64,000 nucleotides of DNA from positions 248,001 to 312,000 of the forward strand of contig CAXLNC010001087.1 of assembly GCA_964187785.1 (NCBI GenBank). Direction: 5' to 3'. This stretch comes from Amphiscolops sp. MND2022. Lineage: Eukaryota. The translations under genes and the position numbers were made by a program. A model generated the notes under the pieces. That model ran no database searches. It was not told the DNA's origin and worked only from the letters and a program-made list of their open reading frames with translations. Positions 8,195 through 44,724 of the stretch are shown in pieces. Position 1 is the stretch's first letter. The number at the start of each line of letters is the position of its first letter.

Positions 8195-8209
8195 GGAGTT
8201 GGTGCGCCA
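8195..8209 (-). promoter_or_regulatory. BEL primer-binding site
   Basis: TGGCGCACCAACTCC immediately follows the LTR end (...TTTTTCA). The cognate tRNA was not determined. Confidence 0.75.
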
Positions 8210-8646: not shown

Positions 8647-10543
8647 TGTTGGAACTCACGTTCCTATCAATGCTTTCGTTTCCTGTATTTCCTATCGGGT
8701 CCGTTTCCAATTCGAAATGTGCGGCAGAACTACATTGTTCTGAGACAGAATTGGACAGGTTGTCCACTTTTGATGCTAAGTTCTCGATCAACCTCAGGAT
8801 TTCTCTCTGTCCGAATTCAGTGTCTCTTAAACGCTTGGACAGACGATTCTCTATTTTATTGGAGATATCTTCGAAATCTTGTTCAGAGAGGCTAACATTT
8901 TCGTCATTTGAGGCATTACAATTCTCAATTTCCTCTTGGCTAGTCCCTTGGTCACTCCTTAGCTTTCTTTTCTGTGACTTTTCGGGCATTTTCAAGGAAG
9001 TATTTCTGCTTGGAAAATTGAATTGGGTATTCACTTGATAACAGTTATAGGTAAACTATTCCCAAGCAACGCTGGTTAATCACAAAATAATATCCAAAAG
9101 TTCAAAATTACGGACGAATGGTTTCAACAAACGGATGAAGTCAACAATTATCAAAAGTAGATAATTACAAAACAATACTTGAAAAGACGATCAAAGTAGT
9201 TCGTACAATCGTGAAATTGATTCTGTTCCTTTCCTTATCCCGCTTCAGGTATTTATACTTTACGCTAGACACGCGGAATAAATTCCGCGCGTGAATTCAC
9301 ACCTTGTTCAGCTCGGCGTCCTTCCGAGGCGGGAAACTTTGAATCAGGTCCACATCCTCGGGATTCGGCTCTCGGCGTCATCTCACTTTTAAGGAAAAGT
9401 GGGAATCAACTTCCTGCCGAAGTCCCAATTCCGCTTCGCTTTCTTCTCGGTTTCCCGCCAATTCAAGACGCCGAACCAAAGTTGGCACTGAAATTCATGA
9501 ACCTAGCTACTAAAGCGGGAAAGGAAAGTGAAATTGTCATCGAATAATCCCAAATTTTACTGCCAATAAATTAAGGGAAAAGCTTCAAATGAATAATTCA
9601 ACAGCACTGATTTACATTAAATCAGATAATTATGGCTGTCAAATGGCATTTTAAGTTGAACCAAACAATAAAAATCCTGGATGAACGCCAGGTAACATGT
9701 TTCATTTCGAGTAGCCTAGCCGGTTGACCAGGCGATTGACTCAATTATACATGAACAGAACAATACATGTGAAGGTGAATATTAGCACGGGGGGGTTATT
9801 TTATCACAATATTATTATATATTATAATCAACAAGGACGGCTTTGCAGTTTAGGTGATTGGAAGTTGCATTTCAATTAACTATTTTCAATCATCTGTCCA
9901 GGCTGTTGTTTCATTAAGGAAAAATAGCGCCTTGCCTGGGAGATTGACTCAGATGGAAAGTGGATTAAACATATTATGATACTTCAAAATATCGTTGATT
10001 GGCGTTTATTAGGTGTTCTTTTGGTACTTAGCTTCTTTTAAGCTGTGATAAACTCATTTGAAAACTGCATCGATTAATTATAATTTGAGTACTCAGGTAG
10101 TGCGACTGAGCGAGCGTCCCAGCTTCAGTCGACTGGTAAGTTGCCTGGGACGTTGACTCAGTTATTCAATTAGTAACAACTGCGCTCGAATCTGATTGGT
10201 CAATATGAATTGGCTTAATGAAATTTGCTACTTCAGCTGAGGCGAATCCCCAGTCAACGCGTTGATTGAATTAATTTCAGTCAGCGCACTGGCTAGGTTG
10301 ACTAAACAAATACTGCATTCATTATTATTATTTAATTATTTACATATGTATGTATTTTAGCTACAGCACAGAGGAGGGGAATGTACGATTGTGTGTTATT
10401 CAAATAATATCAAGCTGTTTGTTGTCCTTTTTATTTTAGATCTGTTTATGGTAATTTTGGTCAGTTCTGATTGATTTCCTCACTCTCTTCTTCAGGCGTT
10501 CCTCCCGTTGTATGTGTCCCGTGACGCCTCTGGGGTCGCGACA
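8647..10543 (-). repeat. Element A 3' LTR (1897 bp)
   Basis: Direct repeat of 21556-23452 at offset 12909. One substitution noticed by eye (9597 T vs 22506 A). Purine-rich tract AAGAAAGCCGGGGAC upstream. Confidence 0.97.
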
Positions 10544-11087
10544 GTCCCCGGCTTTCTTGAGGGACGTCCGGTACAGGAGGGAGTGGGGAAATCGGTCTGA
10601 ACGGCGACGAAATAGGCTGTTGAAAGACAGATTGTACTAGGGAGTCGTAAGTGAACCACGACGAGTCTGTCGTCCAGTCACTCCCCGAGAAGTAGCCAAT
10701 TGAGCTAGAATGGCTCGAAATGGGACTGACTGTGCCATTGATAGGGGCGAATAACCAACTATCCATTTCATTATAATCTCGGGGTGGACTGACGTTTATG
10801 TCATCTTGGATCACAGGGTTGTCCCTGGTGAATCGCCGGATAGTCGGGCCCTCTTCGCTCGCTGTAGAGAGGATTGCCATTGGCGCTGTGTCGTGATGCA
10901 ACACCGTATGCTCTTCTTTGGTCTTGATGATCTCGTATAAATCATGTATTACGGCTGGGGGGGAGCCGTTTTGTGGATATAATTGGATAGTGGGTGTAGA
11001 TTGCGCTTGAGGCAATTGTAAGTATTCGTCCTGGTCGCGGTCCAGAATAAAGCAGTCGTTAGATAAATCGAATTCTGGTGTCAGCAT
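10461..11087 (-). CDS. Accessory sense ORF-X, 208 aa, Ser/Pro-rich, function unknown; last 83 nt lie in the 3' LTR
   Basis: ATG-initiated. Clear homologue at the same position in element B (28708-29304): F[IL]LDRDQ, YEIIKT, IRRFTxDNPVI, GY[FW]SGSDW, SRGLS. Confidence 0.8.
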   Translation of the reverse strand: MLTPEFDLSNDCFILDRDQDEYLQLPQAQSTPTIQLYPQNGSPPAVIHDLYEIIKTKEEHTVLHHDTAPMAILSTASEEGPTIRRFTRDNPVIQDDINVSPPRDYNEMDSWLFAPINGTVSPISSHSSSIGYFSGSDWTTDSSWFTYDSLVQSVFQQPISSPFRPISPLPPVPDVPQESRGLSRPQRRHGTHTTGGTPEEESEEINQN

Positions 11088-11273
11088 TGTTTCTTTGGTT
11101 GTAATTGCAAGTATAGCAATAATTGTTTTGACAATGCTAGGCTGCTAACAATTTGAGAGTAAGCTGCGGAATAAAGGTAATTATAGTCGACTGCGTTGGG
11201 AATAGTTGAAACGTTTAAGTGATAATTCCCTTCGTTGTATTTCGTTCACGCCGCTTGCGTGATTGAGAAAGTT

Positions 11274-11353
11274 TTCAGCTGGCAGACTGAATGACTTCCA
11301 TTACGTCATGATAATAATATTTCATATTAATAATTACGTTGGTTTTACGCCAC
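11274..11353. promoter_or_regulatory. Candidate bidirectional promoter motifs between ORF-X and the antisense gene
   Basis: TTCAGCTGGCAGACTGAA (11274-11291) and TTTTACGCCAC (11343-11353) recur in element B at 29407-29424 and 29474-29484 with similar spacing. Confidence 0.5.
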
Positions 11354-11426
11354 GTCTTCGTTTTGATCTCTTTGGTGTTACGGTATGGTACTTTTTAGAT
11401 TTGCATTGTTATTGTCGTAACTGGTG

Positions 11427-14400
11427 ATGGCTGAGTCTACTGATGAGGATGCCGCTCGATTTCTGCAATCTCGGCATGTGGGTATTATCGAAAGTGAAGT
11501 GGAGGTGGGAAGGAGGGATGAGTCAGTCGAAGAGGGTGAGTCTGAGTCGCGTCTTGTGATTGCGGAGAGTTCGAAAGAAGGGGAATCTGTTGAGGAGACT
11601 GGAGATGGCGACAGTCCTTGTCCACAGGATGTTCGCCATGTTCCTGGATTTGGAGAGGTGGACGATGGTTCAGAAGAAGAAAGTGCTTCTGAGAGAGACA
11701 GCGTTTCCGATGATACTTTGCATTCCGACGAGTTGGGCGAGAGTGATTCAACCCATTCCACTGGCAGTGACGCCAGGCATGGTATAGACTTCCTTCATGA
11801 CCAGCTTGGTAAGTCCTTAGCTATTCTGTTAATGGCCAGTTAACATTATGCGAGCTAGTATTCTGACGCGTCAATTCATCTACTTTCGTATTCTTTGTAG
11901 GTCTTTCTGATGATTCCAAAGACGAGGATTTCTCTCCTGGCAAATTGCCTCCCGTTTCCGTGTTTCGGCGGAGTAAGCGTTTGAGCTCTGTTCCGCAGGA
12001 GGGGCCAAGTAAGCGAGCTCGTGAGATGTCACTTGGTGGAGTCGCTGGATCCGTTGATGAGGAGTCATCCAATGTTTCTACTGTAGAGCATGAAGGTAGG
12101 AATTCATTTGTGTTTGCTGATTGTCCGGAAGTATTGGGGGGCTGGGTTGTTTTCTTTCTGTCCTCGATGTTTAGTTGCCGGTTGTATTTCAGGGCGTAAA
12201 GTTAGAATTGCGGACGATGTTTCGAGTGATGCTATCTTTGACGTTCCTGGCGTCTCTCAGGATGATGATGGGGTTACCGTCGTTGGTGCAAGTTCCTTCA
12301 AAGTGGTGCACGAGCGTACTCAACATAATCGCCCTGCAGAAGGACTAGAGGCTTCTGTTCTTCACAACGAATGGGAGAAAGGTTAATCCTCTCGTTATGT
12401 CTGTGGGTTTCGGGTCTTGATTGGTATCGGTTGCATTGTTCGAAATTTTGTTCAGCTCTCAGTATTTGCGTTTCTGTTTCAGCTGGGTTATCTGAAGTTC
12501 CGGCAGGTGCTGTGTGTCTCTCCTCTTCTCAGGTGTTGGCGTTTGGGCAAGCTGCTGTTCGCTTGGAGAAAACTCAGTCGCGTATGGAGTCCCGCTCTTT
12601 GACCCGCCGTAAGTCATTACTAAGTTGTTTCTTCTTCCGATTGGTTCGCTTTGTTGTTTGTTTGTGTTTCCGACTGATTTGTTTATAACTCTCTGTATGG
12701 TTGCTTCTGTTGGTCTTCAGTTGGTAGTGGTTTTGTTCTGTATTTGTAAGTATTTAGTTGTGTTTAGAACTTGAAGAAGTTGTGCGACTGCTGAAGTCGA
12801 AAGGGATTCGCCTGCATCGCGATCAGGGTGAGTCTGGGGCTGAGGACGATGCCAAACGGAAGCTGTATGCATCCTACTTGAAGAAGAAGAAACGTCAAAC
12901 TGAACGTCATGTGCTCCGGAAGGAGATGGCCGAGCATGCCATACCCCGATTGTTCGTGAGTCGGCGTTCTGACAAGAATCCAAATGGGTTCAACTGCGCA
13001 ATCTGTCGTAAGGACATCTCCTTCTTGAGCAAGGGAGAACCAGAGATTTGGCGTCACTTCGGGAGTAAAACTCATTTCCTGCGTGATAGACGATACAGAC
13101 TTGACCACGAGGATTATTTGTACACCTCACGATTTGATGCTGTGGAAGTCTCATCTATCTCAGCTGATTTACGGGCGGAGATCGAAAAAACCCCTGCTGT
13201 TGTCCTTGGTTGCAAGAATCCGTTCGTCGAGGATGAGGTCGATGCTCTGGTTGGGGTGTCGTCGAATGTTCCTGCTTCTACTCTTGTGGGGGGTTTATTT
13301 GAACTCTTGCGTAGTGGTGGATCACACAGCTTCCTCAGGAGGTTATGGAATCAATTTAGAACCACGATGCCTGTTGATTCAGAGTGTGCTCACACGACTT
13401 GGAGCAAGACAGCGTCTCTCGTGATTTTGACTCAAACCTTGTATCCCAGGATTATCCGTCGCGTGCAGACTTGGTGTAAGGACGCTCACTTTAGCGTCAG
13501 TTTCCGCGAGGATCGTGATGGTCTTCGGTGTTTTGTACACTGTTGGAATGCCGGTAATTTGCATGAAGTCTGTGTGTTGTGGGAACCCGTGAGACCTGGT
13601 ATCTGTGACGCTGAGATTTCCTGTTTGTCCCGATTACTAGCTGTTCTTCCTGCTGGGGCTACGCCTGTGTCGCTACGTGGTTGTTCGTCGACCCTTTTCA
13701 ATGTCGTCGTTGAATGGTGTAAGGCTGACAGTCGTCCTGTGCCAATTCTAATGATGGAGTATTCTGTGGAGATGTTCAAAGGGCATGTGCGCGAGGCTTC
13801 TGGGCCAAGCATTGGGTCTTTGGATCCTTTCTCCATCGTTGAGTATCTTCTTCTTCGTTTGGGGAAAGCTTCGCATCAGCCCTGGCTTATGGGTTTGAGT
13901 GAGTTGCGTCGTTGTGTGCAGCAGTGTGCCGTACCCTTCTCTTCTCTATGTGCAGTGCTGGAGGAATTGATATGCAACTGGGGTGATGTTCAGTCTTGTT
14001 TGAAGGAATCCTCGATTGTTCCTGCCAGTCGTACTAAAGCGCCTGCTGATTTGAATCAGATGATCTTGGCTGATGCCCAAGTGTTGCCTCGTTTGTGCCT
14101 GTTACATCTTCTGGTGTCGTGCTTCCAGGCGAATTTCCAAAAACTTTTCGCTCAAGGGATTTGTGATTACAGTTGTCGCAATTATGGCGAGTTCTGCTTT
14201 TTCTATTGGAGCATCCTGAGCAAAGTGAAGAAACTGTCTGATCTTCCTGACATTAACGCTTGGAGTGAGTACATTGGGCGACCTCTGAATTCGTGGTCTA
14301 ATGTGGCATATGTTGACTGCTTCCGAGGTGAGCGTATTGTTGGGCTTGCCATGACAGGATTTACAGATGCTCGGAAACGGACTTTCTTGCGAGATTGTCA

Positions 14401-15400
14401 TGGTCTATTGATGGAATTCTTGAAGGTGCTGTCACGTTGTCCATTCATTCTCTCTCAGTTTGCGTCAAATTTGAGTTGTTTCGCACCAGATATGCTGCTT
14501 CTGGGAGATGAAAAGTATACAGTTGAACTGTTCCGTGGGTTGATGGCGTGTTTCCAGGAGTGTGGGCGTGTGACGAATGTTGTTGCTGAGGGCGCCTGCA
14601 ACGAGTTCAAGTCGTTTTTGGTGGAACTTCGTCGGCGCAACCGACGTCTTGTGGATACCATCACAGATAGTTTCGTTTTCATGCAGCAGTTTGAAGCGTT
14701 TGGCTGTCGGGAGAATTTGGCTCGGGTGGTCCAGTTGGCTTCACTTGTGGCTGTTCCTCGTGAGGTGTGTTACCCGGTCGTGGAGTTCTCTCTGAGTGGT
14801 GTTCAGGTCCCTAAGAAGATATTGTTGTCTTCCATCTTTGCTGTGCAGTCTTTCATTTCTGCTCCTGGGTTCAATTCCGGTGAATTGTTGACCAAAGACT
14901 GCTTGCTTGAGCTGAAAACCAATTTGCCTGTTGGGAGGGACTTTCTGAGTAATGAGAGTTTCGCTCCGTGGCGACCGTTGTATATGCTCAGCCGTCAGGA
15001 TCTGTACCGTGGTTTGCGGGGCCGGTTCGATGAGTACTATTTGGAGCAAGTTGCCGAGTGGCGCCGTCGGTCTGGTCAGCCACCTCTTACTGGCTTGTCA
15101 TCTTCCGCGACGTTGTCCGTTGCTGATGTCAGTCCACAAGCGTCGGTGGCCCCTGGATTGGTTGTGGATACGTCTGTCTCCCCAGTATCAATTGATGTGT
15201 CTTCTGCTGTTGTTGGAGCAGGGAGAAGTACAGAGTCTGCAGAGTCCCCTCAGGCTTCCTCTTTATTTGCTGCCTTGTCGCATTCCCCGACTTCTTCCCG
15301 TGATGTGACTCGAATGTTGAGGCAGAAACGAGAAGCTCGGCGAGCATCGCAGGAAGCAGCGACTGCTGGGAAGGATTCGACCCCAATAAAGAAGCGCTAG
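11427..15400 (+). CDS. Antisense 5-exon gene, 1174 aa: join(11427-11808,11901-12095,12193-12381,12483-12608,12768-15400). Acidic/disordered N-terminus plus a BED-like zinc finger and a degenerate hAT-transposase-like body
   Basis: Four GT-AG introns (92, 97, 101, 159 bp), all phase 1, join five separate ORF-track fragments into one 3525-nt open frame. The structure is mirrored in element B. The hAT assignment is by-eye motif similarity. Confidence 0.85.
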
Positions 15401-15695
15401 TGAGGGTTGTCTGCCACCTAAGGTTGTTGTATTTAGACTTCGTAATTGACTGCAGTATTGTTGTTCTTTTTATTTTATTTACATTCTTTGTAGTATTCCT
15501 TGTAAAAAACGTGTACGTTGGGAAAAGAAAAGAGAAAAGTTGAGTTGTAGTTCGTCCTCTGATGGGGTATTATCGCAATACATTTTTGGCCCCTCGTGTA
15601 CGTTTTCTCTTGAGTTCTCAGGTTGAGATATAGTGATAAGTAAGTCGTAAGTAGGTCAGTAAGTGAGGCGATTACCTTTTGGAAGAATGAAATAT

Positions 15696-16930
15696 TCAGT
15701 TTTGAGAACTCGTGTTGACATTCAGCGGGTTGTAATACGCATAATCCTTTTTCCAGTTTGATGGGGGGTTTGCTCGCAAATTGTATTTGTTTTTTCGTGG
15801 AGAATTCTGGGTTGGGGTATCATTTACATAGTTGTCTGAACTGGCGCCAGGTAGTGTGTCGTTTGGGGGTTCATCTGGGTTAGGTGTTATGTGGAAATCT
15901 TCTGGGTCGGGTGATCGGGTGTTTCTTGTAATCGCTTGATCTTCGGGTGGGTCGGGAAACGTTACAGTGGGTTCCTTCTGTAAAGGGGTGTTAGGTGTTG
16001 GGGCAAAATCTTCGGAGTTTGACTGCCAGGCTTGGGCATATAGGTCGTCATGGAAGACGTCTACTTCCTTGTCCGGTATGAACTCTTTGGGCAAAACTGG
16101 TTTGTCTGGGAGCGGTTTGTCAGTTGGGCAAGGTTTCAAACGAATCCTATGAAGGATTTGTGTGAACTTTGTTTGGAGTTTTCGTATGAGGTAATTGTTG
16201 TTGGGTAGAGTTTTAACAACGATATATGGTCCTGTCCAGAGGTATTCTGTGAATGGGATTTTGGTGCCCTGGGTGTTCGCTTTCGGGTGAAGTGCGTAGC
16301 AGTATTCGTTGACATGTAGGGGGTGAGCATTGGCTTTCTTATCGTAATACTGTTTGTATCGTATATAAGATTGCATCAAGTTTTTGCTCACAGTTTCTTT
16401 GATCTGTTGGGTTTTGTGTAAGATATCTTCCCCATGGGTCGTCGTCGGTTTCGTTTGTTGCGCATTGCGGATGCCGAACTTAAGGTCCAACACGTTGTAC
16501 GGTATTCTCCCGTGGAATACCCTGCTTGGTTCGCATCCAAGTGAGGAGTGGTACGACGTGTTGTAGTTAAGTGTTGCAATGGCCACGTATTGGTGCCACA
16601 TTGTCCTTCGTTCTCCTGTTGATATCTTTAGCGATTCTTTTAGGGAGGCGTGGCATCTTTCCAGAATTCCGATGGTTTGGGCATGTTTTGTTGTGGCATG
16701 TCGTAGTTGTATGCCCAGGGTTCTAGTGGCGTCAGCCACTACTTCAGACATGAATTGAGTGCCTTTATCAGTGATAATTGTGGTTGGTAGGTAGGCGTGG
16801 CGGGTCATGATGTCTACTAGAACTCGGGCTACTGTGCTGGCGTCTGTTCTGACCACGTTGTATGTAAATAGGTAGCGAGAGAAAACGTCCATCGCCGTGA
16901 TGATTGCATGGTAGCCGCCGGATGGTTCGT
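15696..16930 (-). pseudogene. pol: Element A integrase, N-terminally deleted (lacks HHCC and the first catalytic Asp)
   Basis: Begins at DEPSGGYHAIITAMDVFSRYLF. Retains ITDKG, ILERCH and the GPY motif. About 0.6 kb is missing relative to element B. Confidence 0.9.
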
Positions 16931-19900
16931 CGTTTCTATGGTCGTTTCATTTGAAGGGGGAGGAGAGTCATCTTTGGCGGTAACTTTCTTGCGGCCACGG
17001 AGCTTGCGCTCCCAGATTTGCTCCTCTGTTTCTGTGTCGTCATCGGGCATAAAGAAGAATTGTTCTTCTTCCGCGACATCGGACGACTGGATGTTGACCT
17101 GTATCGGTGTGGTGGTGATGTCGTCTCGGATCGTTAGGTGGACCTTTTCTTTCGGGTGGAGGTCGAGGCGGGACAGAAAGTCCGCTGCAGTATTCATCTT
17201 GCCCGGTACATGAGCAATGGTGAAACGGAACTGGAGGACGAAATCGCATGCGTTCCACAAGGCTGGTGGAATGATTTTCGTCTGGAAAAAGCGTGTCACA
17301 GATTTGTTGTCCGTGAGTACAACAACCGGTTTGGTTGATTCCCAAAGAATGTGGCTATACTCCATGAAGGCGAAGTAGGTAGCCAGGTGCATAAGTTTTC
17401 TTGACTGACGTGATTTTTTCTTCTTCATTCTCTTCAATCATGAGGGCGTAGCCCGCGTTTTTGAAGTTGGCGTCGGTCATGAGCACGTATTGTCTGTTGG
17501 GCATGGGTTGTTTGAGCCACAGACCACATGCGTTGTCCAAAGATTTGTTGATGCTGGAGAAACTGTTCATGATCTCGTTTGTGATCTTGATGGGTTTTTC
17601 GGCTTTGATAAGGTCGTGGAACGGGGCTATCTTTTCGGAAAGTCTGGGAATGTAATTCCGGTAATAATTGACGAAGCCGATGTAGCGTTGGAGGCCCTTT
17701 TTGGTTTTCGGGAAGGTTAGTTTTTGTAGGTAGTTGTGAATCTTCTGGTCTTGGGGGGCGATTCCTTCCGGCGACACTGTTCGTCCAAGGAATTGGACTT
17801 CCTTGGCACCAAACTGGCATTTGGCCATTGTCAAACGCAGTCCTGCTTCGCGGACGCACTGAAAAACCTCACGCAGGTTGGTCTTCAGCTCCTCGGCGTT
17901 GTGGGTGGCAATCCCGATGTCGTCAACGTACTGAGCACATTTGTCAGCCTTGATGACTCGATCGAGGTATTCTCTCATGAAGCTCGAGAAGGAGGAGAGG
18001 GACCTGCTGAGTCCTTGTGCGAGGCGCAGGTAAGCAAATGTTCGACTAGCGAAGTTGAAAGCTAGGAGTTCTACCGACTTTTTGTCTGCCATTTGCAAGA
18101 CGTGATAAGCCTGGGAGCAGTCTAGCTTGCAGAATAACTTTTTCCCTGCGAGGTGCTGAGCTGCATCGGAGAGGGTGCTGACCGGATGGTTGTTGTTCGT
18201 GTAGTCGTCAGCTATTAGACTGTTGATTTTACGGAGGTCTACTAGCAGTCTGAGGCGCCCATTTGGCTTCCTTTGAGCAAATATGGGGCTAGCATACTTG
18301 CTGAACGGCAGTGTAGTTATGATGCCGTAGTAGTGCATCAGGGCAAGTTCGACCGTGAGGTCTTCCTTGAGGTTTACTGGACAGGGTAGGCTTTGCGTGT
18401 ATGCAGGCTGGTCGTTTTTGGGCGTTAGTTTTATTTTGAATTCGTGGTTTACTCCAATATCTAATCGGTGGCGAGCGAATATGTCGTGGTATTCGACAAG
18501 GATGTCTTCTATATCCTTCCTGTCTTGTTCGCCGAGCTGTGAGTCTTCCCACTTGAAATTCTCGAGGAATTTCTGTTTTTCCTGTAGGCTGTTTGTGGGG
18601 TTCAGTTTCTGAATTTCCTCCAATTCTTCGATTTCCCTGAGAATCCGTCTTTGGACTGGCGTGTGAGTGGAGGGATCACCCGGGTTGTCCGGTGTGGGGA
18701 ACCAAAACTGTTGGGTCGTTTCTGGTTTCTCCGTTGTTTTTAGCAGTTCGTGTACGTACTCTAGTGCTTGTTCTGAGTCGTCTTCTGTTAGGACCTTTAA
18801 TGCTGCTGTGGATAGTGGTTTGATGTTCTTGGCTTCTTTTGGTGTTGTTATGTGGAATTCGGCTACCACCGTGTTCTTCTTGATTGTGAAAGGGGTGGGT
18901 GAAGTATTCGTTATTCGGATTGGCACCTTCATTTCGTGGGCGGTGGATAGAGAGCTGGCAATTGCTATTGGTTTATCTTCGGTGTATGATGGTATCGGGT
19001 GAATGACACCGGTGGTATCTGCTATTGACCTGATGTTGACTGCGGCTTCCACCGTGATGCACTGGTCAGGAGCCAGTGTTGTTTGGTTGGGGATGCTCAC
19101 TTTGTATGGTTTCGCTGGTTGTTCTTCGGACACTGGGTTTATTGCGTAGGTTAAGTGGGGGAAGTGGAGGAGTCCTTGACTGGCATCCAGGATGGCACTA
19201 TTGGACTTTAGGAAGGTGAGGCCTAAAATGGGGCCAGTGATCTTGTTCGCCACGATGAACGTTTCTTTGAATGTCCAATCACCAATTTCAAACTGGAGTT
19301 GAATTGTCCTGGTTGGGCTTTCGATGTCGCCATTTGCGACTTGCAGTTTGAAAGGTGGAGGATCGGTCTCTTGGAGGATGTTATCGGGGCTCATGTTTTT
19401 CAGTTTTTGGAACTCGTTTTCAGGCATGCAATTGACTAGGGCGCCAGAGTCAATGAGTGCATCTATTGAGAAATGCTTGAAGTCCATGGGCGCGAAAAGC
19501 ATGCGTCTTTTCTGTTTTAGGGCAATTGCTGAGAATAGTGGCAGGCATTTCTCGCCTGCTGGTTTGTCACTGGTCGGGATACTGGTTATTAGGTTTGGGT
19601 CCAGCTGTAATAGCGTGTTGTCTTCCTTGTGTTGATGATTTTCGGGTTCGTGGTTTCTTTCGGTATTGAGCTGTGCTTTGTTGTCAAACTCGCAAGTCAG
19701 TGCTCGTTTGATTCGTCGTGTTTTTTGTATTGGGGTGACGGTAGTTTGGGTTGTAGTGTTGACGGGAGGGTCCCCGGCTTTATGTGCGTCTGATGCCCCG
19801 GTGATTATGGCTTCCGTTGGGGGTGTGCGTTTTGTGGTTGAGATTTCTGGACTTTGGGGGGAGGATGGTGATGATGTCATCGAAGCCCTGATTTCGTTGG

Positions 19901-20489
19901 TGGGTGCCGGAACTCTTATGGGTGACCTATTGGCGGTCGAGTTGGAGACAAGTTTTTTGATGATTGGTTTGAGGGGGTACTCGGGTGGTGACACAATGAC
20001 TTGTAACTCCGTTTCTCGTTCGTCGGCGTGGGGTACGGGTTGATGATCATTGTTGTCATCTATTCTCCTCTTGGTTGTGTCCAGATTCATGTTCGTCTTT
20101 TTGACGAATTCGTGGAAGGGGACGTTAATCGTCTCCTTGAATGTTAAGGTCGTTTGGTCGTATAAGTCGGGGTTGTGATAGGGGTCGCAACCGTAGTCTG
20201 GGTCATGGAAGTAGGTGTCAGGGGTAGAACTGGGAGGGAGGGGGCGTCTAGTTGAATTGTACATTTGGGGGTTTTCTAAGTACCATGCTGGGTATTGTAA
20301 TTTGTCGATGGTGGATTTATTGAACTTTATGAGGCGCCGGATAAGCCATCTCCGCTGCCAGTCGGTAGATGGTTCACCGGTACACTCTGCGAACATTTCA
20401 GAATCGTGGTTCTTCGGAGGTTCAGATATCGTGTAATATCTGTAATCGATGTAGTCTCCGAAGCGAAGACGTGGCTCTAGAAGTTTTTT
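16930..20489 (-). pseudogene. pol: Element A pol: pre-protease domain, protease, RT and RNase H, with a frameshifting ~68-nt deletion near 17385
   Basis: LIDSGA, YASPIF, LVDLRKIN, KLDCSQAY, YVDDIG, LMTDANF, VLTDNK. The segment VAFGSKTF...AKEFL present in B is absent. Confidence 0.93.
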
Positions 20490-21898
20490 GATTCATTCGT
20501 TGACTGCGTTACAGTCGGTGGTTGAGGCATTGGTGTAGTTTGTGGCTGCTGCATTGGGATGGTTTGTGGATGTTGGGCGATGGGGATGTTGTTGGGTGGC
20601 GTTGTTTTGGGCGTTTTCCACCACGTGGGACGGTTTTCCCAATTCGCACCTGAATAACAGTCCTTTGTCTCGTGGCTCATTTTGCCGCATGTCTCGCACG
20701 GTGAGGCCTGTGCTGCGGTATTGTTTCTTTGGGATCGTTTGTCCCTATTGGTTTTGCGGCAATTTCGTAGTAGGTGTCCCGGATGGCCGCACCCAAAGCA
20801 TGTTCCCGTTGTTTTTGGGGGTTTGTTCTGTTGTTGTTGTTGTAGGGAGGGTTCGATGTTGTGTATCCCGGTTATTGATGTGCTGTCAGTAGTGGCGAGT
20901 CCGTTGAGTTCGATTTCTCGTTCCAAGTGTTGGACCATTGTTTCGTATGATTCTGTCTCGAGTCTGGCCTGGTTTAGAACCTTCTTGAGATGGGGGGGCA
21001 TTTTGGCATAAAAGGAGGTTTCTATGAAACGAGGGGCGTCCTCCCCGTAAGCTTCTTGTGCTAACTTTTGATACTGCTCTAGGAAGTCTGGGAATGTTTG
21101 TTGGCTTGGGTTGAACGCCAGATTTTCCCATTTGCAGCGTGCTGTTGCTACTGACTGTTGTCTGACATACCGTCGGCGGAAGCCTGCGAGGATGTCGTTC
21201 AGGTGTTCTCGAGTTGCGTCGGTCATGTTCCTGAACGTTTGTAGTGCTTCGCCTCTCAGGAGAGAGTGGAAATAATGAATTTTCTCCTCTTCTGTGATAT
21301 TCGGGTACACTTTCAGACTTGTTTGAAATAGATCCTCAAAGTGTTCAAACTTGTCCGTTTTTCCATCAAATGTGGGCATCGTGGTGGACATGGCTTTGGG
21401 TAGCCTGGGTATTCCGGTGTTGTGCGTCGTTGCCGTTTGCAGCGAGTGTAAGAGTTTGTCAATGAAGTCATCAGGGTACCTCTGGTTTGGAGGCGGCAGG
21501 CTTGATGATCTTTGGTGGGCGCTTTCTTGCTGGTTCGCTGAAACTCCTGTCACCATGTTGGAACTCACGTTCCTATCAATGCTTTCGTTTCCTGTATTTC
21601 CTATCGGGTCCGTTTCCAATTCGAAATGTGCGGCAGAACTACATTGTTCTGAGACAGAATTGGACAGGTTGTCCACTTTTGATGCTAAGTTCTCGATCAA
21701 CCTCAGGATTTCTCTCTGTCCGAATTCAGTGTCTCTTAAACGCTTGGACAGACGATTCTCTATTTTATTGGAGATATCTTCGAAATCTTGTTCAGAGAGG
21801 CTAACATTTTCGTCATTTGAGGCATTACAATTCTCAATTTCCTCTTGGCTAGTCCCTTGGTCACTCCTTAGCTTTCTTTTCTGTGACTTTTCGGGCAT
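20477..21898 (-). CDS. gag: Element A gag (473 aa from ATG 21898; first 114 codons inside the 5' LTR)
   Basis: MPTFDGK..FEHFE capsid-like start. Two CX2CX4HX4C knuckles (CFGCGHPGHLLRNC, CETCGKMSHETKDC). Confidence 0.92.
   Translation of the reverse strand: MPEKSQKRKLRSDQGTSQEEIENCNASNDENVSLSEQDFEDISNKIENRLSKRLRDTEFGQREILRLIENLASKVDNLSNSVSEQCSSAAHFELETDPIGNTGNESIDRNVSSNMVTGVSANQQESAHQRSSSLPPPNQRYPDDFIDKLLHSLQTATTHNTGIPRLPKAMSTTMPTFDGKTDKFEHFEDLFQTSLKVYPNITEEEKIHYFHSLLRGEALQTFRNMTDATREHLNDILAGFRRRYVRQQSVATARCKWENLAFNPSQQTFPDFLEQYQKLAQEAYGEDAPRFIETSFYAKMPPHLKKVLNQARLETESYETMVQHLEREIELNGLATTDSTSITGIHNIEPSLQQQQQNKPPKTTGTCFGCGHPGHLLRNCRKTNRDKRSQRNNTAAQASPCETCGKMSHETKDCYSGANWENRPTWWKTPKTTPPNNIPIAQHPQTIPMQQPQTTPMPQPPTVTQSTNESKNF
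20483..20489 (-). promoter_or_regulatory. -1 ribosomal frameshift heptamer A AAA AAC (gag-pol)
   Basis: Lies two codons before the gag stop. The -1 frame is open from here into pol. The same heptamer is in B at 38462-38468. Confidence 0.8.
21543..21555 (-). promoter_or_regulatory. Element A PBS TGGTGACAGGAGT
   Basis: Directly follows the LTR-terminal CA. The identical 13-mer is in element B (39648-39660). Confidence 0.85.
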
Positions 21899-23452
21899 TT
21901 TCAAGGAAGTATTTCTGCTTGGAAAATTGAATTGGGTATTCACTTGATAACAGTTATAGGTAAACTATTCCCAAGCAACGCTGGTTAATCACAAAATAAT
22001 ATCCAAAAGTTCAAAATTACGGACGAATGGTTTCAACAAACGGATGAAGTCAACAATTATCAAAAGTAGATAATTACAAAACAATACTTGAAAAGACGAT
22101 CAAAGTAGTTCGTACAATCGTGAAATTGATTCTGTTCCTTTCCTTATCCCGCTTCAGGTATTTATACTTTACGCTAGACACGCGGAATAAATTCCGCGCG
22201 TGAATTCACACCTTGTTCAGCTCGGCGTCCTTCCGAGGCGGGAAACTTTGAATCAGGTCCACATCCTCGGGATTCGGCTCTCGGCGTCATCTCACTTTTA
22301 AGGAAAAGTGGGAATCAACTTCCTGCCGAAGTCCCAATTCCGCTTCGCTTTCTTCTCGGTTTCCCGCCAATTCAAGACGCCGAACCAAAGTTGGCACTGA
22401 AATTCATGAACCTAGCTACTAAAGCGGGAAAGGAAAGTGAAATTGTCATCGAATAATCCCAAATTTTACTGCCAATAAATTAAGGGAAAAGCTTCAAATG
22501 AATAAATCAACAGCACTGATTTACATTAAATCAGATAATTATGGCTGTCAAATGGCATTTTAAGTTGAACCAAACAATAAAAATCCTGGATGAACGCCAG
22601 GTAACATGTTTCATTTCGAGTAGCCTAGCCGGTTGACCAGGCGATTGACTCAATTATACATGAACAGAACAATACATGTGAAGGTGAATATTAGCACGGG
22701 GGGGTTATTTTATCACAATATTATTATATATTATAATCAACAAGGACGGCTTTGCAGTTTAGGTGATTGGAAGTTGCATTTCAATTAACTATTTTCAATC
22801 ATCTGTCCAGGCTGTTGTTTCATTAAGGAAAAATAGCGCCTTGCCTGGGAGATTGACTCAGATGGAAAGTGGATTAAACATATTATGATACTTCAAAATA
22901 TCGTTGATTGGCGTTTATTAGGTGTTCTTTTGGTACTTAGCTTCTTTTAAGCTGTGATAAACTCATTTGAAAACTGCATCGATTAATTATAATTTGAGTA
23001 CTCAGGTAGTGCGACTGAGCGAGCGTCCCAGCTTCAGTCGACTGGTAAGTTGCCTGGGACGTTGACTCAGTTATTCAATTAGTAACAACTGCGCTCGAAT
23101 CTGATTGGTCAATATGAATTGGCTTAATGAAATTTGCTACTTCAGCTGAGGCGAATCCCCAGTCAACGCGTTGATTGAATTAATTTCAGTCAGCGCACTG
23201 GCTAGGTTGACTAAACAAATACTGCATTCATTATTATTATTTAATTATTTACATATGTATGTATTTTAGCTACAGCACAGAGGAGGGGAATGTACGATTG
23301 TGTGTTATTCAAATAATATCAAGCTGTTTGTTGTCCTTTTTATTTTAGATCTGTTTATGGTAATTTTGGTCAGTTCTGATTGATTTCCTCACTCTCTTCT
23401 TCAGGCGTTCCTCCCGTTGTATGTGTCCCGTGACGCCTCTGGGGTCGCGACA
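21556..23452 (-). repeat. Element A 5' LTR (1897 bp)
   Basis: Direct repeat of 8647-10543. Candidate TATA box TATAAATA at 22159-22166. Confidence 0.97.
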
Positions 23453-24324
23453 CTAACAACATTTGACAGTGACTGAAAGAAAAAACTAGCTACTGTGAAA
23501 ATTGTGCAGGTTTCCACAAAAACACCTATTGCATACGCGTTTTCAGTTTTCAAATTTCTTTTCAAGTTTTCTCTATTCTATATGCGTTTTCGGAATTTTT
23601 CGTTTTTCTTTAAATTTTTCATTGAAAATGGAAAATGTTTTAATGATTCAATTTCATTGCAAATCTTTACAGATCCCTAACAAATCCTTATGGAGTCCTT
23701 TGCAGAACTTGAGACAAGAGATCAATTCGCTAGCTAATCAATACCCTTTTGCAAATATATAAATCGAGGAATATTATCAATTCCAAACATTCTGTCCCAG
23801 ATAGTCTAGTGAGTGGATATAGGATATGCCAATCCCAACTCCGAAGTCTGGGTACGTTTCTTGGTCTTTGATAAGTGTTTGCACTTCATTTTGCCAACCC
23901 TCGTTGAAAGTCCTGTAATTTTCCACATGTTCTCAAAAGTTGCCATCAAGTTTTGTTGAAATTTGCTAAAACTCCTGCGCAAACTTTCGAGCCAAACTTT
24001 ATGCCTGTTGTATTCGATTTTTATCAAGCTTCTTGGAATTTTCATCAGAAATGTGGTCGCAATACTAGGCTGCGAAGATTTGCAACTTTTTATAATGGCA
24101 TGAGTTCTCATATGAAATATGAGAAGTTAACTATTTTGCCTCAATTTTAATGTAAAATAGGTTAGTTCAATCTCTGAAATGCAGACTAGCGTCATCTTCA
24201 CTGTGCTATCCGAGGAGCGGCGACGACACCAGACCAACAGTTGAGATTCAAAGTATGAGTACATTGGGATTGAGTCAGTAACAAATTGGGAAATGTTTCG
24301 GATTTTAATTGCAATAGTTTTTAA

Positions 24325-26588: not shown

Positions 26589-28781
26589 TGTGTTGACCCT
26601 GAGATGGGTGCAACTCGTTCAACGTAGTTGGCCTTGATGTCGAGGCTTGATTTTCAGGTTCGTAGAGATCTACTATGGGATTTTCGGATCTAAGCGGATG
26701 GCCGGACAATGAGTCTATTTTTGAAGATAAATTCTCAATCATCTTCAGGATTTCCCTTTGCCCAGTCTCGGCGTCTTTTATTCTTCTACCAACTGATTTT
26801 TCGATTTTCTCAGAGATTTCGGAAAAATCGCGATCGGAGATACTGGGTACATTTTCAGTCCTTTGGCTAGCTGCCTCAGGTTCACCTAGCGAGCTGGATA
26901 CTGAATCCCTTCTGGCTTTCCTTTTAGCGGATCTTTCGGGCATTTTTGGGTTTTAAGTTCACAGATTCAAACTATTCGACAAAGAATAAAGAAAGGTTGA
27001 GATTTTTAATCTTCAATTGAGTTTTGTAACAAGAGAAAACAAAGTTGCTTTACAGGAAGCGGTTTTTGAATTTTCAAAATCTATCAAATTATTATTTTTC
27101 AACTGCACTTATTTAACTTTTTCAAGTATATATACCTTTCACCCACGTGAAGCGGGGAAAAATCCGCACCACTTTCACGCTTTATTCAGCCCGGCGTCCT
27201 TCCAAGGCGGAGAAACCGGAAGTTCAGTTCCGCTTTGTCGAACTCAGGCTCTCAGTTTGTTCATGCTTTCCGAGGAAAGCACGCGTCCACTTCCTGCCTG
27301 AGTTGCGACTCCGCTTTCCTTCACCTCCAATTCCCGCCTTTTCAGGACGCCAAAGCTGAAATCAGCAATAAAATGAGCGATGATTCAACATTTCGCTTTT
27401 AAAAAGCGGGAAAGATGAAATTAAAGCAACGACAATTATGGAAATTAGAAATTTCCCAAAACGATTTAACTGATTTAAATATTACTCCAGATAATAGTTA
27501 TTTCAACGAAACTGCACTTAGGCTCGTAAAACTACCCGTGGGGGCATGAAAACACTGATTAAGCATGAAGGGACAAAGCTCAGTCTCAGGTTGGGGTCTG
27601 AGACGATTAAGGCAAAATAACTGATTTCGCAAAAATAGCAAAAAAAATCGCAATTTAGCAACGACTAACAATTTTGTGATTTATATCAACTTGGGGGTGC
27701 GGTTCAGGTCATTTCTCAATCCAGTTTAAATGAGGATTAATTTTAAAAGGGTAGTACAAACCATTGATTAAATAACTCAAGTCAAAGATTTAATTCCCAG
27801 GCCGGGGTCTAGGCCGTGGTTTAATGCATTCAAAGTTAAGTATTGCTACATGAATAAATGGTCATAAACTGCATGTAATCAACCACTAATTCTTATTATA
27901 CTTCGTATTTGGGACGTGGTTTCACTGATAAGACGGTGGGTAATCGGGAGTACCGATATTTTTACTTTTAAGATGGATTTGGACACACCTGATTTCAGGC
28001 CGTGTCCTGGGCTACAGTTTATTGCATTTACTAATTAATCTTGGTTTACATGGGTGAATAGTATTGCACAACACTCTTGATCGTTATTCGATCGTTTTTC
28101 ATTGTAGGTGTTTGGTTATCGGGTAAAAATCATCAACCGAATTAACAATTTCCATTTCTACAATGGATTTTAAAAATTTACATTTCAGGCCACTTCCTGG
28201 GCCGCGGTACATTACTTTCAGTTAAAATCAACACAATTTGTACATTACTCAGGGAATTACATGTAAATCATCACATTAGTTGTCTTTGTTTGCATCAACA
28301 CTTTTACATGTAATCATTTAATAGCGCGTTCACTGCTGCATAGCGTTAAATAGCTCATTCCAATTTCAGGCCGCTTGCCAGGCCGCCGCTTCACTGCGCA
28401 AATCTGAGGCCGGTCGCCAGGCCACGGTTCCGCCATTGATCTTCCAAACCGTTTGCTGAGCGGTGTGATTCTATTAATAATATAGCACTGTATTATTATT
28501 ATTATTATTAACTGCACTAATAGCTCCGTACTTGTTGGTACACTGTGTGTGTACGTATATATTCTTGTATAAATATATGTAATTATTAGTATTTATATAT
28601 ATATATAAATATATTTTTAGCTCCAATTTGATTTAAAGTAATAATTTATAATAGCAATAAGTTAGTTGTGTGTTAGTTATTTCACTTGCCTTTTCTTCTG
28701 TTTCGGTCTAATTCCAATTTCCTTCTTCGAAGACTGCGCTTATTGTGTGACAGGTTTCATAGCTTAGCTGGGGCTGTGACA
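26589..28781 (-). repeat. Element B 3' LTR (2193 bp)
   Basis: Matches 39661-41774 with scattered substitutions and several indels. Confidence 0.95.
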
Positions 28782-29304
28782 GTCCTCGACTTCGATGTGC
28801 TGTCTCATCTGGAAGGCGGAATTGGGATATCGACCGGATTGGAGTGTCAAACAAATTGGGTAGATCATCGCGCATTGAGTCGTAGGATCTCCACGACGAA
28901 TCCGAGTCCCAGTCGCTTCCTGACCAGTACCCTTCTGAGCTGCTGTATGGGCTCATGGGACTGCTGACGGTAGAGTTAGGGCTGTATCGGTCCGCAGGAT
29001 TGAACCGCCGGATTGGGCTCACGAATTCGTCATCTGGGATAACCGGATTATCTGTAGTGAATCTTCGTATCACTCCTTGTTCGTTTTCAACGTTAATTGC
29101 ATTTAAAAGCGGTTGTTCGTGAACAAGGACTACATGTATATCTGCCGTCTTGATTATTTCGTAGGTAATAGTATGCTGTGCTGTGTTGATGAGATTGTAA
29201 TTAGGCGGCGGTGTACCGGGCCTTTGTCTTGGCTGCGCTGGTTGATCTCGGTCGAGCAGAAAAACGTCTTCATTTGTTTGATCGTTGGAGTGGGAATTGT
29301 ACAT
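28708..29304 (-). CDS. ORF-X homologue in element B (198 aa); last 74 nt lie in the 3' LTR
   Basis: Motif-level identity to 10461-11087. Open frame with ATG. Confidence 0.8.
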   Translation of the reverse strand: MYNSHSNDQTNEDVFLLDRDQPAQPRQRPGTPPPNYNLINTAQHTITYEIIKTADIHVVLVHEQPLLNAINVENEQGVIRRFTTDNPVIPDDEFVSPIRRFNPADRYSPNSTVSSPMSPYSSSEGYWSGSDWDSDSSWRSYDSMRDDLPNLFDTPIRSISQFRLPDETAHRSRGLSQPQLSYETCHTISAVFEEGNWN

Positions 29305-29531
29305 TTTATTTGATTGGCAATCTGATTGTCAGTTGATTAGGAACATAACTGACTAATCCGCGTCCTGAAAATTTGTTCAAACCGTTTGTGTTGAGCTTTT
29401 GAATTGTTCAGCTGCCAGACTGAACAACTCTCCTTATATAGTAGATAACTTCTAGTATTAATATTTCCATTGATTTTACGCCACAACTTCTTTTTATTTT
29501 TTCATGGTTTGTTATTTTCAGACAATTGATT

Positions 29532-32500: not shown

Positions 32501-32578
32501 CAGGCCTCTACGAGTTCGTCGGTGCAAAAGAAGAGAGCGGTGTCGAAGAAAGGATCTCGCCAAGAGAAGTCTTGTTGA
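29532..32578 (+). pseudogene. Disrupted homologue of the antisense spliced gene (exons 29532-29879, 29959-30189, 30310-30513, 30632-30760, 30911-32578)
   Basis: Four phase-1 GT-AG introns and conserved exon-edge peptides. Frameshifts in exon 1 and near 31410. TAA stops at 31844 and 32252, both opposite Leu in A. In-frame loss of ~0.8 kb including the zinc finger. Confidence 0.85.
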
Positions 32579-32914
32579 GTTTTTTGAAACTTTACGTTGA
32601 TGAACTGCTTTTATTTATTTTCTTTGTTGTTTCTTTCTATTGTTCTGATGTTACAGGGTTCCGCTAGTCGGTTCCGTCTGAGAAAATAAAATAGATAGAA
32701 AATCAGGTTAAGAATGCTCTGGTATTATGGAGCGAAGAAAAAATTTGAGGCAGCTCGGTGGTCCACTGGGTTATTCAATTTAGTATTTAGCCTCTGTATT
32801 GTTTTCATCCGAGTCGTACAGTAAAAGTGTAAGAGAGAGAAAGAGCCATTATAAGTTGAGGAGATTTGGATATGAGTTGCAGTATAGCTGTCCAGGTTAG
32901 CGCCTGGGGCCTTT

Positions 32915-38468: not shown

Positions 38469-40015
38469 GACTGATTTGGTTCCTGGGGTTGGTTTTGGGG
38501 TTGGGTTGTCGTTTGCGCAGGCGGCATGTAGCCCATTTGGCTAGTTGCTTGATTGTGGTACTGGGTTTGGGTTTGGGTTGTCATTGGGAGAAAGGGGGAG
38601 GTAGCCCATTTGGCTGGTTGTTTGGTTCTGGTACGGCGGTTGGGTCGTTTGGAAATTGTTTTTGGCATACTGACCTTGTGATTGCGGAGGTATCGGGATG
38701 TTATTTGGGGACGTGGCTTTGGGGGTTTTCCACCACTGTGGTCGATTTGCCCAGTTGGCGCCTGAGTAGCATTCTTGGGTGGTGTGGCTTTTTTGCCACA
38801 AGTTTCGCATGGGTCAACAATTTTGTTGGGCACCCTGTTACCTCTATTGCGGGCTTCGCGGGCTACTTTCCGGCAGTTTTTGATAACATGGCCAGATTGT
38901 CCACATCCGTAGCATGGTCCTGACGTTTTGGGAGGATTCGTAGCTTGCTGTGGTTCTAGTGCGTCGATTTGATGCACTCTTGTTATGTTGGTCTCGCTGG
39001 GGGCCAACAGCCCGTTTAACTCCATCTCTCTCTCTAAGTGTTGGACCATCATTTCGTAAGATTCAGTTTCTAACCTTGCTTGGTTCAGGACTCGTTTGAG
39101 GTGGGTTGGCATTTTCGCGTAGAAGGAGGTCTCGATAAACTTGGGGGCGTCGTCACCGTATGCTTCTTGAGCCAGCTTTTGATACTGCTCCAAGATGTCT
39201 TGGAAGGTTTGTTGGGATGGGTCAAAATGGAGTTGTTCCCTTTTGCAGCGGGCTGTCGCGATAGATTGGGGGCGGACATATCGTCGTCGGAAGGTCGCGA
39301 TGATGTCGTCTAGGCTGGCACGGTTTGTGTCAGTCATGTTGCGGTAAATCTGCAGAGCGTCATCCCTGAGTAGTGAGTGGAAATAGTGGATCTGCTCCTC
39401 TTCTGAGATGTTGGGATACACTTTGAGGCTGGTCATGAAGAGGTCTTCAAAGTGCTCAAACTTGTCGTTCTTTCCGTTGAATGTGGGCATGGTTGTTGAC
39501 AATGCCTTGGGCAATCTGGGGAGTCCTATGTTTTGTTGGGTGACATTCATGAGTGATTCTAGCAGCTTGTCCACTATGTGATCCGGGTATTTCTGGTTGG
39601 GGGGCGGTAGGCTCGAAGATCGGGGCGGTGCTTCTTTTTGGGGGAACACTCCTGTCACCATGTGTTGACCCTGAGATGGGTGCAACTCGTTCAACGTAGT
39701 TGGCCTTGATGTCGAGGCTTGATTTTCAGGTTCGTAGAGATCTACTATGGGATTTTCGGATCTAAGCGGATGGCCGGACAATGAGTCTATTTTTGAAGAT
39801 AAATTCTCAATAATCTTCAGGATTTCCCTTTGCCCAGTCTCGGCGTCTTTTATTCTTCTACCAACAGATTTTTCGATTTTCTCAGAGATTTCAGAAAAGT
39901 CGCGATCGGAGATACTGGGTACATTTTCAGTCCTTTGGCTAGCTGCCTCAGGTTCACCTGGCGAGTTGGATACTGAATGCCTTCTGGCTTTCCTTTTAGA
40001 GGATCTTTCGGGCAT
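38459..40015 (-). CDS. gag: Element B gag (first 118 codons inside the 5' LTR; a frameshift in the second zinc knuckle is likely)
   Basis: Homologous to A gag. CYGCGQSGHVIKNC. The second knuckle CETCGK continues as KSHTTQEC in another frame (ORF 38541-38810). Confidence 0.88.
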   Translation of the reverse strand: MPERSSKRKARRHSVSNSPGEPEAASQRTENVPSISDRDFSEISEKIEKSVGRRIKDAETGQREILKIIENLSSKIDSLSGHPLRSENPIVDLYEPENQASTSRPTTLNELHPSQGQHMVTGVFPQKEAPPRSSSLPPPNQKYPDHIVDKLLESLMNVTQQNIGLPRLPKALSTTMPTFNGKNDKFEHFEDLFMTSLKVYPNISEEEQIHYFHSLLRDDALQIYRNMTDTNRASLDDIIATFRRRYVRPQSIATARCKREQLHFDPSQQTFQDILEQYQKLAQEAYGDDAPKFIETSFYAKMPTHLKRVLNQARLETESYEMMVQHLEREMELNGLLAPSETNITRVHQIDALEPQQATNPPKTSGPCYGCGQSGHVIKNCRKVAREARNRGNRVPNKIVDPCETCGKKATPPKNATQAPTGQIDHSGGKPPKPRPQITSRYLRNHKVSMPKTISKRPNRRTRTKQPAKWATSPFLPMTTQTQTQYHNQATSQMGYMPPAQTTTQPQNQPQEPNQSKN

Positions 40016-41437
40016 TTTTGGGTTTTAAGTTCACAGATTCAAACTATTCGACAAAGAATAAAGAAAGGTTTTTAATCTTCAATTGGGTTTTGTAACAAGA
40101 GAAAACAAAGTTGCTTTACAGGAAGCGATTATTGAATTTTCAAAATCTATCAAATTATTATTTTTCAACTGCACCTATTTAACTTTTTCAAGTATATATA
40201 CCTTTCACCCACGTGAAGCGGGGAAAAATCCGCACCACTCTCACGCTTTATTCAGCCCGGCGTCCTTCCAAGGCGGAGAAACCGGAAGTTCAGTTCCGAT
40301 TTGTCGAACTCAGGCTCTCAGTTTGTTCATGCTTTCCAAGGAAAGCACGCGTCCACTTCCTGCCTGAGTTGCGACTCCGCTTTCCTTCACCTCCAATTCC
40401 CGCCTTTTCAGGACGCCGAAGCTGAAATCAGCAATAAAATGAGCGATGATTCAACATTTCGCTTTTAAAAAGCGGGAAAGATGAAATCAAAGCAACGACA
40501 ATTATGGAAATTAGAAATTTCCCAAAACGATTTAACTGATTTAAATATTACTCCAGATATTAGTTATTTCAACGAAACTGCACTTAGACTCGTAAAACTA
40601 CCCGTGGGGGCATGAAAACACTGTGTAAGCATGAAGGGACAAAGCTCAGTCTCAGGTTGGGGTCTGAGACGATTAAGGCAAAATAACTGATTTCGCAAAA
40701 ATAGCAACGACTAACAATTTTGTGATTTAAATCAACTTGGGGGTGCGGTTCAGGTCATTTCTCAATCCAGTTTAAATGAGGATTAATTTTAAAAGGGTAG
40801 TACAAACCATTGATTAAATAACTCAAGTCAAAGATTTAATTTTCAGGCCGGGGTCTAGGCCGTGGTTTAATGCATTCAAAGTTAAGTATTGCTACATGAA
40901 TAAATGGTCATAAACTGCATGTAATCAACCACTAATTCTTATTATACTGCGTATTTGGGACGTGGTTTCACTGATGAGACGGTGGGTAATCGGGAGTACC
41001 GATATTTTCACTTTTAAGATGGATTTGGACACACCTGATTTCAGGCCGTGTCCTGGGCTACAGTTTATTGCATTTACTAATTAATCTTGGTTTACATGGG
41101 TGAATAGTATTGCACAACACTCTTGATCGTTATTCGATCGTTTTTCATTGTAGGTGTTTGGTTATCGGGTAAAAATCATCAACTGAAATAACAATTTCCA
41201 TTTCTACAATGGATTTTATAAATTTACATTTCAGGCCACTTCCTGGGCCGCGGTACATTACTTTCAGTTAAAATCAACACAATTTGTACATTACTCAGGG
41301 AATTACATGTAAATCATCACATTAGTTGTCTTTGTTTGCATCAACACTTTTACATGTGCAAAATCTGAGGCCGGTTCCGCCATTGATCTTTCAAACCGTT
41401 TGCTGAGCGGTGTCATTCTATTAATAATATAGCATTC

Positions 41438-41505
<68 letters not shown>

Positions 41506-41774
41506 GCACTGATAGCTCCGTACTTGTTGGTACACTGTGTGTGTACGTATATATTCTTGTATAAATATATGTAATTATTAGTATTTATACATATATAAAT
41601 ATAGTTTTAGCTCCATTTTGATTTAAAGTAATAATTTATAATAGCAATAAGTTAGTTGTGTGTTAGTTATTTCACTTGCCTTTTCTTCTGTTTCGGTCTA
41701 ATTCCAATTTCCTTCTTCGAAGACTGCGCTTATTGTGTGACGACAGGTTTCACAGCTTAGCTGGGGCTGTGACA
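39661..41774 (-). repeat. Element B 5' LTR (2114 bp), with an expanded (ATT)n tract at ~41438-41501
   Basis: Direct repeat of 26589-28781. PBS adjacent at 39648-39660. Confidence 0.95.
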
Positions 41775-44715: not shown

Positions 44716-44724
44716 CCAAAATGT

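Follow-up and report, generated by a model that had tools for sequence, protein, structure and literature searches.

The nearest precedent for the layout described here is the retrotransposon Ty1 of Saccharomyces cerevisiae, in which GAG starts a few codons before the end of the long terminal repeat (LTR), the LTR contributing a short stretch and not a separate conserved domain. Ty1 belongs to another superfamily, with the pol order PR-IN-RT, and is primed by initiator tRNA, as opposed to the tRNA-Leu of the elements analysed below. It shares with them a primer-binding site located within the GAG frame and, as PMC4974528 describes it, also has a shorter Gag form, p22, made from an internal mRNA and not from an ATG at the LTR junction. 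Functional coding sequence inside an LTR is also described in plant Ty3/gypsy elements, the CRM-clade chromoviruses Beetle and Bingo, where according to PMC3605345 the gag-pol frame with its CR motif enters the 3' LTR; there, however, the LTR concerned is the 3' one and codes for the integrase C-terminus, downstream of the polypurine tract (PPT), and not the 5' LTR, which here codes for the Gag N-terminus ahead of the primer site. With the Ty1 primer site in GAG and CRM pol reaching into the 3' LTR, LTR coding sequence as such is thus already known. Cer1 CERV of C. elegans (Ty3/gypsy) is reported in PMC10309623 to encode an accessory nuclear protein with predicted coiled coils that exports genomic RNA. 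Finally, PMC6894440 describes how an intermolecular first strand transfer joins the R/U5 of one RNA to the U3 of the other.

Here we analyse two elements, A and B, in a window of 64,000 nucleotides of Amphiscolops sp. MND2022 DNA (the whole stretch under study), whose gag frames start more than 100 codons inside the 5' LTR. A literature search brought up no gypsy gag of this kind; Repbase, GyDB, subscription journals and supplements lay outside its scope, and such a case may be recorded there.

Results

Two related Ty3/gypsy elements on the minus strand

Both LTR elements in the window, A (8647-23452) and B (26589-41774), lie on the minus strand and are mutually related, with Gag proteins 55% identical (Table 1). 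They are Ty3/gypsy LTR retrotransposons (Metaviridae), having two direct LTRs (1897 bp and about 2.1 kb) with TG...CA ends and 5-bp target-site duplications (GTTAG at 23453-23457 and 8642-8646 for A, GAATG for B), a tRNA primer site that follows the 5' LTR, a purine-rich tract (ending GGGGAC or GAGGAC) ahead of the 3' LTR, a Gag with CCHC knuckles and a capsid fold (a weak fold match, E 0.004), and a pol region in which protease, reverse transcriptase (RT) and RNase H are followed by integrase, all on the minus strand (PR-RT-RNase H-IN). Among solved structures, Ty3 RT is the best match to RT-RNase H (E 1.1e-27), and the predicted Gag core resembles the PNMA2 and dArc1 capsids, weakly (Foldseek E 0.004-0.01). 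Ty1/copia (Pseudoviridae) was considered and rejected, the PR-IN-RT order being absent. The Gag of the window elements scores weakly against DUF1759 (27.9 bits, versus 71.6 bits for the Gag of a neighbouring element), a domain that we take to be linked to BEL/Pao elements, while their RT-RNase H matches Ty3. In both elements the 3' LTR also carries the start of gag: in A its ATG is at 8989 and its stop one codon past the LTR end, and in B the frame (26943-26578, 121 aa) extends three codons into the flank.

Table 1. Coordinates of features in elements A and B (window positions) and of recombination breakpoints (nt relative to the LTR/primer-site junction)
Feature	Position	Strand	Remarks
Element A, 5' LTR	21556..23452	(-)	1897 bp, TG...CA; 1 mismatch vs 3' LTR
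Element A, 3' LTR	8647..10543	(-)	1897 bp; second copy of TATA box, leader and head frame
Element A, TATA box (TATAAATA)	22159..22166	(-)	268 nt before first gag ATG
Element A, predicted 5' leader	21899..22136	(-)	238 nt; 0 ATG vs 3.98 expected (shuffles)
Element A, gag ORF	20477..21898	(-)	473 aa: head, linker, capsid-like core, two CCHC knuckles
Element A, LTR-coded Gag head	21557..21898	(-)	114 codons
Element A, basic patch	21866..21889	(-)	codons 4-11; NLS-like (putative function)
Element A, predicted amphipathic helix	21653..21793	(-)	residues 36-82, 47 residues
Element A, junction ATG (Met115)	21554..21556	(-)	last LTR base A + TG of primer site
Element A, primer-binding site	21543..21555	(-)	13 nt complementary to tRNA-Leu(CAG) 3' end; read within gag
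Element B, 5' LTR	39661..41774	(-)	2114 bp
Element B, 3' LTR	26589..28781	(-)	carries head frame
Element B, gag ORF	40015-38459	(-)	518 aa
Element B, LTR-coded Gag head	39662..40015	(-)	118 codons
Element B, junction ATG and primer site	39647..39661	(-)	ATG 39659-39661; 14-nt tRNA-Leu primer site
Breakpoint, L199 and L200	-7/+14		p about 1e-56
Breakpoint, L184 and L197	-29/-23
Breakpoint, L176 and L177	-67/-56		best single breakpoint
Breakpoint, L072	+47/+71
Breakpoint, L189	-226/-187
Breakpoint, L078	+388/+395

Several other features of the window were recorded. Another LTR element, likely BEL/Pao and with a strong DUF1759 Gag, occupies the region 2000-8646; it is flanked by a 437-bp repeat whose copies, 2000-2436 and 8210-8646, are 99% identical, and A has inserted at the end of the second copy. 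Immediately 5' of the gag stop, both A and B carry AAAAAAC (about 20480-20495 and 38460-38475, (-)), presumably a -1 frameshift site judging by its pattern, and across relatives the Gag C-terminus is KN or LN. Between integrase and the 3' LTR of A, a long antisense frame (12926-15400 (+), 824 aa) was found; it is single and 820-918 codons long in seven of 14 family representatives (L108-L121) and replaced by several shorter frames in the other seven. Its product gave no match in a Pfam search and begins with a CxxC...H...H pattern, which we take to recall a BED-type zinc finger. A tandem array of 104-bp period occupies 43911-46176, and frames at 49547-52797 (-) resemble, by their motifs, the family-B DNA polymerase of a Polinton/Maverick-type element.

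An LTR-coded Gag head shared across the genome

The initial annotation had placed the gag start of both elements deep inside the 5' LTR, and this holds at the lengths listed in Table 1; the motifs that it quoted as homologous between the two LTR-coded parts (hereafter, heads) align as claimed. A distant lineage in the same genome has 131-132 LTR-coded codons, in elements whose LTR end could be placed while the duplications at the assigned LTR start did not match. Genome searches with the heads of A, B and a third sequence, P0080, returned at least 150 matches each, often in pairs spaced about 13-14 kb, with a long open frame in one member and a short one in the other, and a first look gave 2187 head-like candidates. 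Both ends were taken for 30 elements, which A and B bring to 32. In 30 of these the 25 bases preceding the junction match the 3' LTR end, and 29 of the 32 have the standard 114, 118 or 131-132 LTR codons; of the three exceptions, one has a stop, another lacks the first ATG and the third has an additional ATG upstream. In a larger set of 138 primer-site-like matches, the first ATG stands at 114-132 codons in 124. For later counts 98 stop-free copies were retained, from a set chosen partly for long open frames, which biases stop-free counts upward.

In other genomes, relatives down to about 36% identity keep the basic start, the helical stretch and MVTG at residue 115-135, while in more distant ones about 95-220 residues precede MVTG, counted to the motif and not to a verified LTR end. 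One further lineage, P0096, whose head has no match in the present genome, was seen once, on metagenome contig L106, with a TATA box, an ATG-free leader, 129 codons and the same junction, in a contig that offers no 3' LTR to fix the boundary. Separately, Gag cores of one family recur every 13.6 kb (G000 C10:2570421-2611628, C8:18258129-18285639 and C5:49406061-49420196), a spacing that suggests tandem elements sharing an LTR.

A conserved TATA box and an ATG-depleted leader precede the head

Fifteen of 16 representatives have a single TATA box, placed 149-270 nt ahead of the first ATG (185 nt in B), and 88 of 98 copies have one in the same place; the sixteenth representative, missed by the TATA pattern, has a variant box at that position. 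Transcription would start about 30 nt downstream of the box, near 22136 in A. From this point (TATA+30) to the first ATG, the 16 representatives together contain one ATG against 41.3 expected from shuffles, whereas stretches of equal length before the TATA box contain 1-5 each. Among the 88 clean copies, the leader contains an ATG in 15, among them a subfamily of A with seven copies, and in ten copies inspected these ATGs open frames of 3-27 codons or adjoin the start as an in-frame ATG. The first ATG itself has a purine at -3 in all 98 copies, and scanning ribosomes would take it. Since a conserved TATA box and an ATG-depleted leader precede it, the head is very likely translated, as far as its sequence context can tell. 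The initial annotation had named a transcription start downstream of the upstream ATG as evidence that would overturn its claim; the TATA box, the ATG-poor leader and the recombination boundary described below would instead put the start upstream.

Identity between families is 81-88% over the 300 nt that precede the TATA box and 60-67% over the leader (four such pairs). For the polyadenylation site, no conserved AATAAA was found by which to place it; an AATAAA that occurs inside the head frames of A and B might have served as the signal but was rejected, being missing from families A2, B2, C and D.

The head is under purifying selection

Pooled over four disjoint pairs of active families, dN/dS of the head is 0.09 (bootstrap 0.07-0.12), an upper estimate since saturated synonymous values were capped, and neutral evolution of the LTR-coded codons is thereby contradicted. 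By segment, dN/dS is 0.01 over codons 1-13 (the basic patch), 0.03 in the helix, 0.15 and 0.39 in the two linkers and 0.02 in the capsid, and the head of the distant lineage has 0.10. The selection acting on it shows that the LTR-coded frame is far beyond chance.

AlphaFold predicts one helix (residues 36-82) between disordered stretches, the second of which contains Met115 (mean pLDDT 62, pTM 0.27, alignment of 15; blocks 31-80 with pLDDT 70-88), and the conserved hydrophobic positions of the head have a period of 3.6 (p=0.0015). The conserved LTR-coded domain of more than 110 aa proposed initially, with an NLS-like basic start and a helical pattern, is therefore borne out by purifying selection, by the basic patch and by a predicted amphipathic helix. 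No family above the cut-off was returned for the head by a Pfam search, an ESM Atlas search with residues 1-125 reached a best score of 0.79 at most, and a solved-structure search gave no match over the head, those to PNMA2, dArc1 and Ty3 all falling outside it. The head would consist of a basic patch and one long amphipathic helix on a disordered tether, and its role would likely be that of a matrix-like module for self-association and for trafficking or RNA contact. The Cer1 accessory protein offers a possible analogy for the role of such a basic, helical head, by description and not by sequence (PMC10309623).

Synonymous sites behave differently from the protein. In five family pairs, synonymous differences per site amount to 0.74-1.12 over codons 32-80, compared with 0.10-0.45 for RT and 0.21-0.64 for integrase, and over codons 1-80 as a whole (window 21659-21898 (-)) silent divergence between families is far above that of RT, integrase and capsid while the protein is conserved. 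The excess is present among close copies too, and swapping of R-U5 between lineages (see below) accounts for part of it; a higher mutation rate or selection on the nucleic acid may account for the remainder.

The junction ATG is likely a by-product of the primer site

The initial annotation had further observed that the last base of the LTR and the primer site together form an ATG (MVTGV), and this ATG is indeed in frame in both A and B. LTRs end in CA and tRNA primer sites begin with TGG; where the two abut directly, an ATG is always spelled. AACA or CACA precedes 127 of 138 primer-site matches. One of the three frames across the junction reads TGG TGA and is closed, so that a frame crossing it has two choices, taken once in an ancestor; A and B both descend from that one arrangement and are therefore not independent observations. 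On these grounds the junction ATG is not beyond chance; it is likely a by-product of LTR-end CA and TGG primer site, translated as an internal Met. The RNA fold predicted across the junction is unremarkable (z -1.19).

The primer site is matched over 13-14 nt by the 3' end of tRNA-Leu(CAG), a gene for which was found in this genome. Base 14 of the primer site, a Val third position for which the tRNA would ask for G, occurs with all four letters, as expected where a primer site doubles as protein code. The tRNA-Leu(CAG) 3'-end pattern has 1185 matches genome-wide, with large tandem arrays at G000 C8:35.59-35.64 Mb and C11:5.99-6.02 Mb, and the primer tRNA may be very abundant. In P0089, P0133, P0136 and P0213 the MVTG junction is repeated in tandem and in frame, as if LTR end and primer site had been duplicated within the Gag linker.

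Alternative readings of the head and the junction ATG

The long and short Gag suggested by the initial annotation are not supported. Leaky scanning, in which some ribosomes bypass the first ATG and initiate at the junction ATG so that one RNA yields both forms, is highly improbable. Relatives as remote as about 36-40% Gag identity all have the junction ATG, in frame; it is always followed by G at +4, and its position in a predicted disordered linker means that a short form would leave the capsid whole; however, its invariance is forced by CA and TGG, with one other frame closed by TGA, and its -3 base is A in 62 copies, C in 35 and T in one of the 98, in contrast with the constant purine of the first ATG. 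Leaky scanning would call for a weak first start and an ATG-depleted stretch to the second, neither of which was found: codon usage predicts 41.0 out-of-frame ATGs from one start to the other and 41 are present, and in-frame Met codons intervene in ten of 16 representatives. A separate internal transcript starting in U5, giving a head-less short Gag that limits copy number, would need no such depletion, and the junction ATG with its G at +4 is available to it; precedent exists in Ty1, whose Ty1i RNA gives the p22 restriction factor according to PMC4974528. Against this, a scan of 23 LTRs with the TATA pattern turned up no further box in the stretch from the first ATG to the junction, and the sequence has no feature indicating an internal promoter, leaving this route quite unlikely.

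Two further readings concern the head itself. It might act alone: the 3' and solo LTRs, with promoter, leader and 114-132-codon frame, would then yield the head followed only by a random tail, a product that would interfere with Gag or be co-opted by the host. In 15 of 15 family A 3' or solo copies inspected, the frame is stop-free in the LTR and continues 1-42 codons into the flank (1-150 codons in the 32-element set), and the head-like candidates of the first look are abundant; but a role in full Gag fully explains the selection on the head, and the tails vary per insertion, so we regard an independent function as unlikely. The converse, that the upstream frame in U5 is open merely by chance and the junction ATG is the true start of Gag, agrees with gene callers beginning P0071, P0122 and P0146 at MVTG, in copies possibly damaged or cut, but is scarcely credible given dN/dS of 0.03-0.10 with saturated synonymous sites, the conserved hydrophobic periodicity and an ATG-poor leader that ends precisely at the upstream ATG.

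Heads are exchanged against capsids near the primer site

The LTR-coded part and the capsid give conflicting trees. Across 97 copies, a triplet scan of the coding stretch (p<1e-7; mirror triplets merged by hand) identified six recombination events, four of which have breakpoints within 71 nt of the junction (rough binomial p 0.004, for a 71-nt window picked after seeing the data) and two far from it (Table 1). L199 and L200 combine the whole LTR of one family with the gag core of another. L176/L177 and L182-L184/L197 have U3 and the internal region from one parent, and the block from TATA box to junction mostly from another: L177 and L184 each change parent twice, shortly past the TATA box and then at the primer site or close to it (7/237, 82/28 and 2/88 informative sites in L177; 6/58, 31/5 and 1/17 in L184), the left switch of L184 falling between TATA+1 and TATA+50. 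A 3' LTR was recovered for four of six recombinants tried, and in all four the mosaic is present in both LTRs, which are 98.8-99.7% identical and flanked by matching duplications; the mosaics thus predate insertion.

The swapping of blocks between TATA box and primer site is likely the outcome of intermolecular strand transfer, whose expected pattern it matches, and would independently place the U3/R boundary upstream of the first ATG. In the LTR mosaics of PMC6894440, as described there, such a swap mixes regulatory sequence; here it would also carry a protein domain, in frame. What is new, as read from these mosaics, is that recombinant lineages swap the LTR-coded head against the capsid, in frame and near the primer site.

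Discussion

Our results probably reflect a single arrangement: an LTR-coded head of 114-132 residues is part of one main Gag, which would start in the LTR and continue across the LTR end and primer site for tRNA-Leu; the junction ATG would be a by-product, and strand transfer would re-pair heads with capsids. Lying in R-U5, the head would be part of the minus-strand strong-stop DNA (roughly 580 nt) and be copied separately from the remaining gag, and an intermolecular first jump or a later template switch would pair it in frame, at the primer site, with the capsid of another RNA.

A bolder extension of this arrangement can be put forward only tentatively. The head may be a swappable Gag module with no genetic linkage to its own capsid: reverse transcription would re-pair it in frame, at the primer site, with the capsid of a co-packaged family, and silent sites would turn over fast while the protein is held. 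The clade would then reshuffle a specificity or host-evasion domain every cycle, and a solo LTR would be a promoter-plus-domain cassette.

LTRs are normally taken as non-coding, both in annotation and in the dating of insertions by LTR divergence, and here about 350-400 nt per LTR are under protein-level selection. The junction ATG is in addition an annotation trap, at which gene callers start some relatives. From the recombinants the U3/R boundary can be located, and intermolecular first jumps counted, by sequence alone in a genome of animal scale. With a Gag domain in R-U5 that would travel in strong-stop DNA, adjacent parts of one protein would be split by the whole replication path, and could be paired anew at the primer site.
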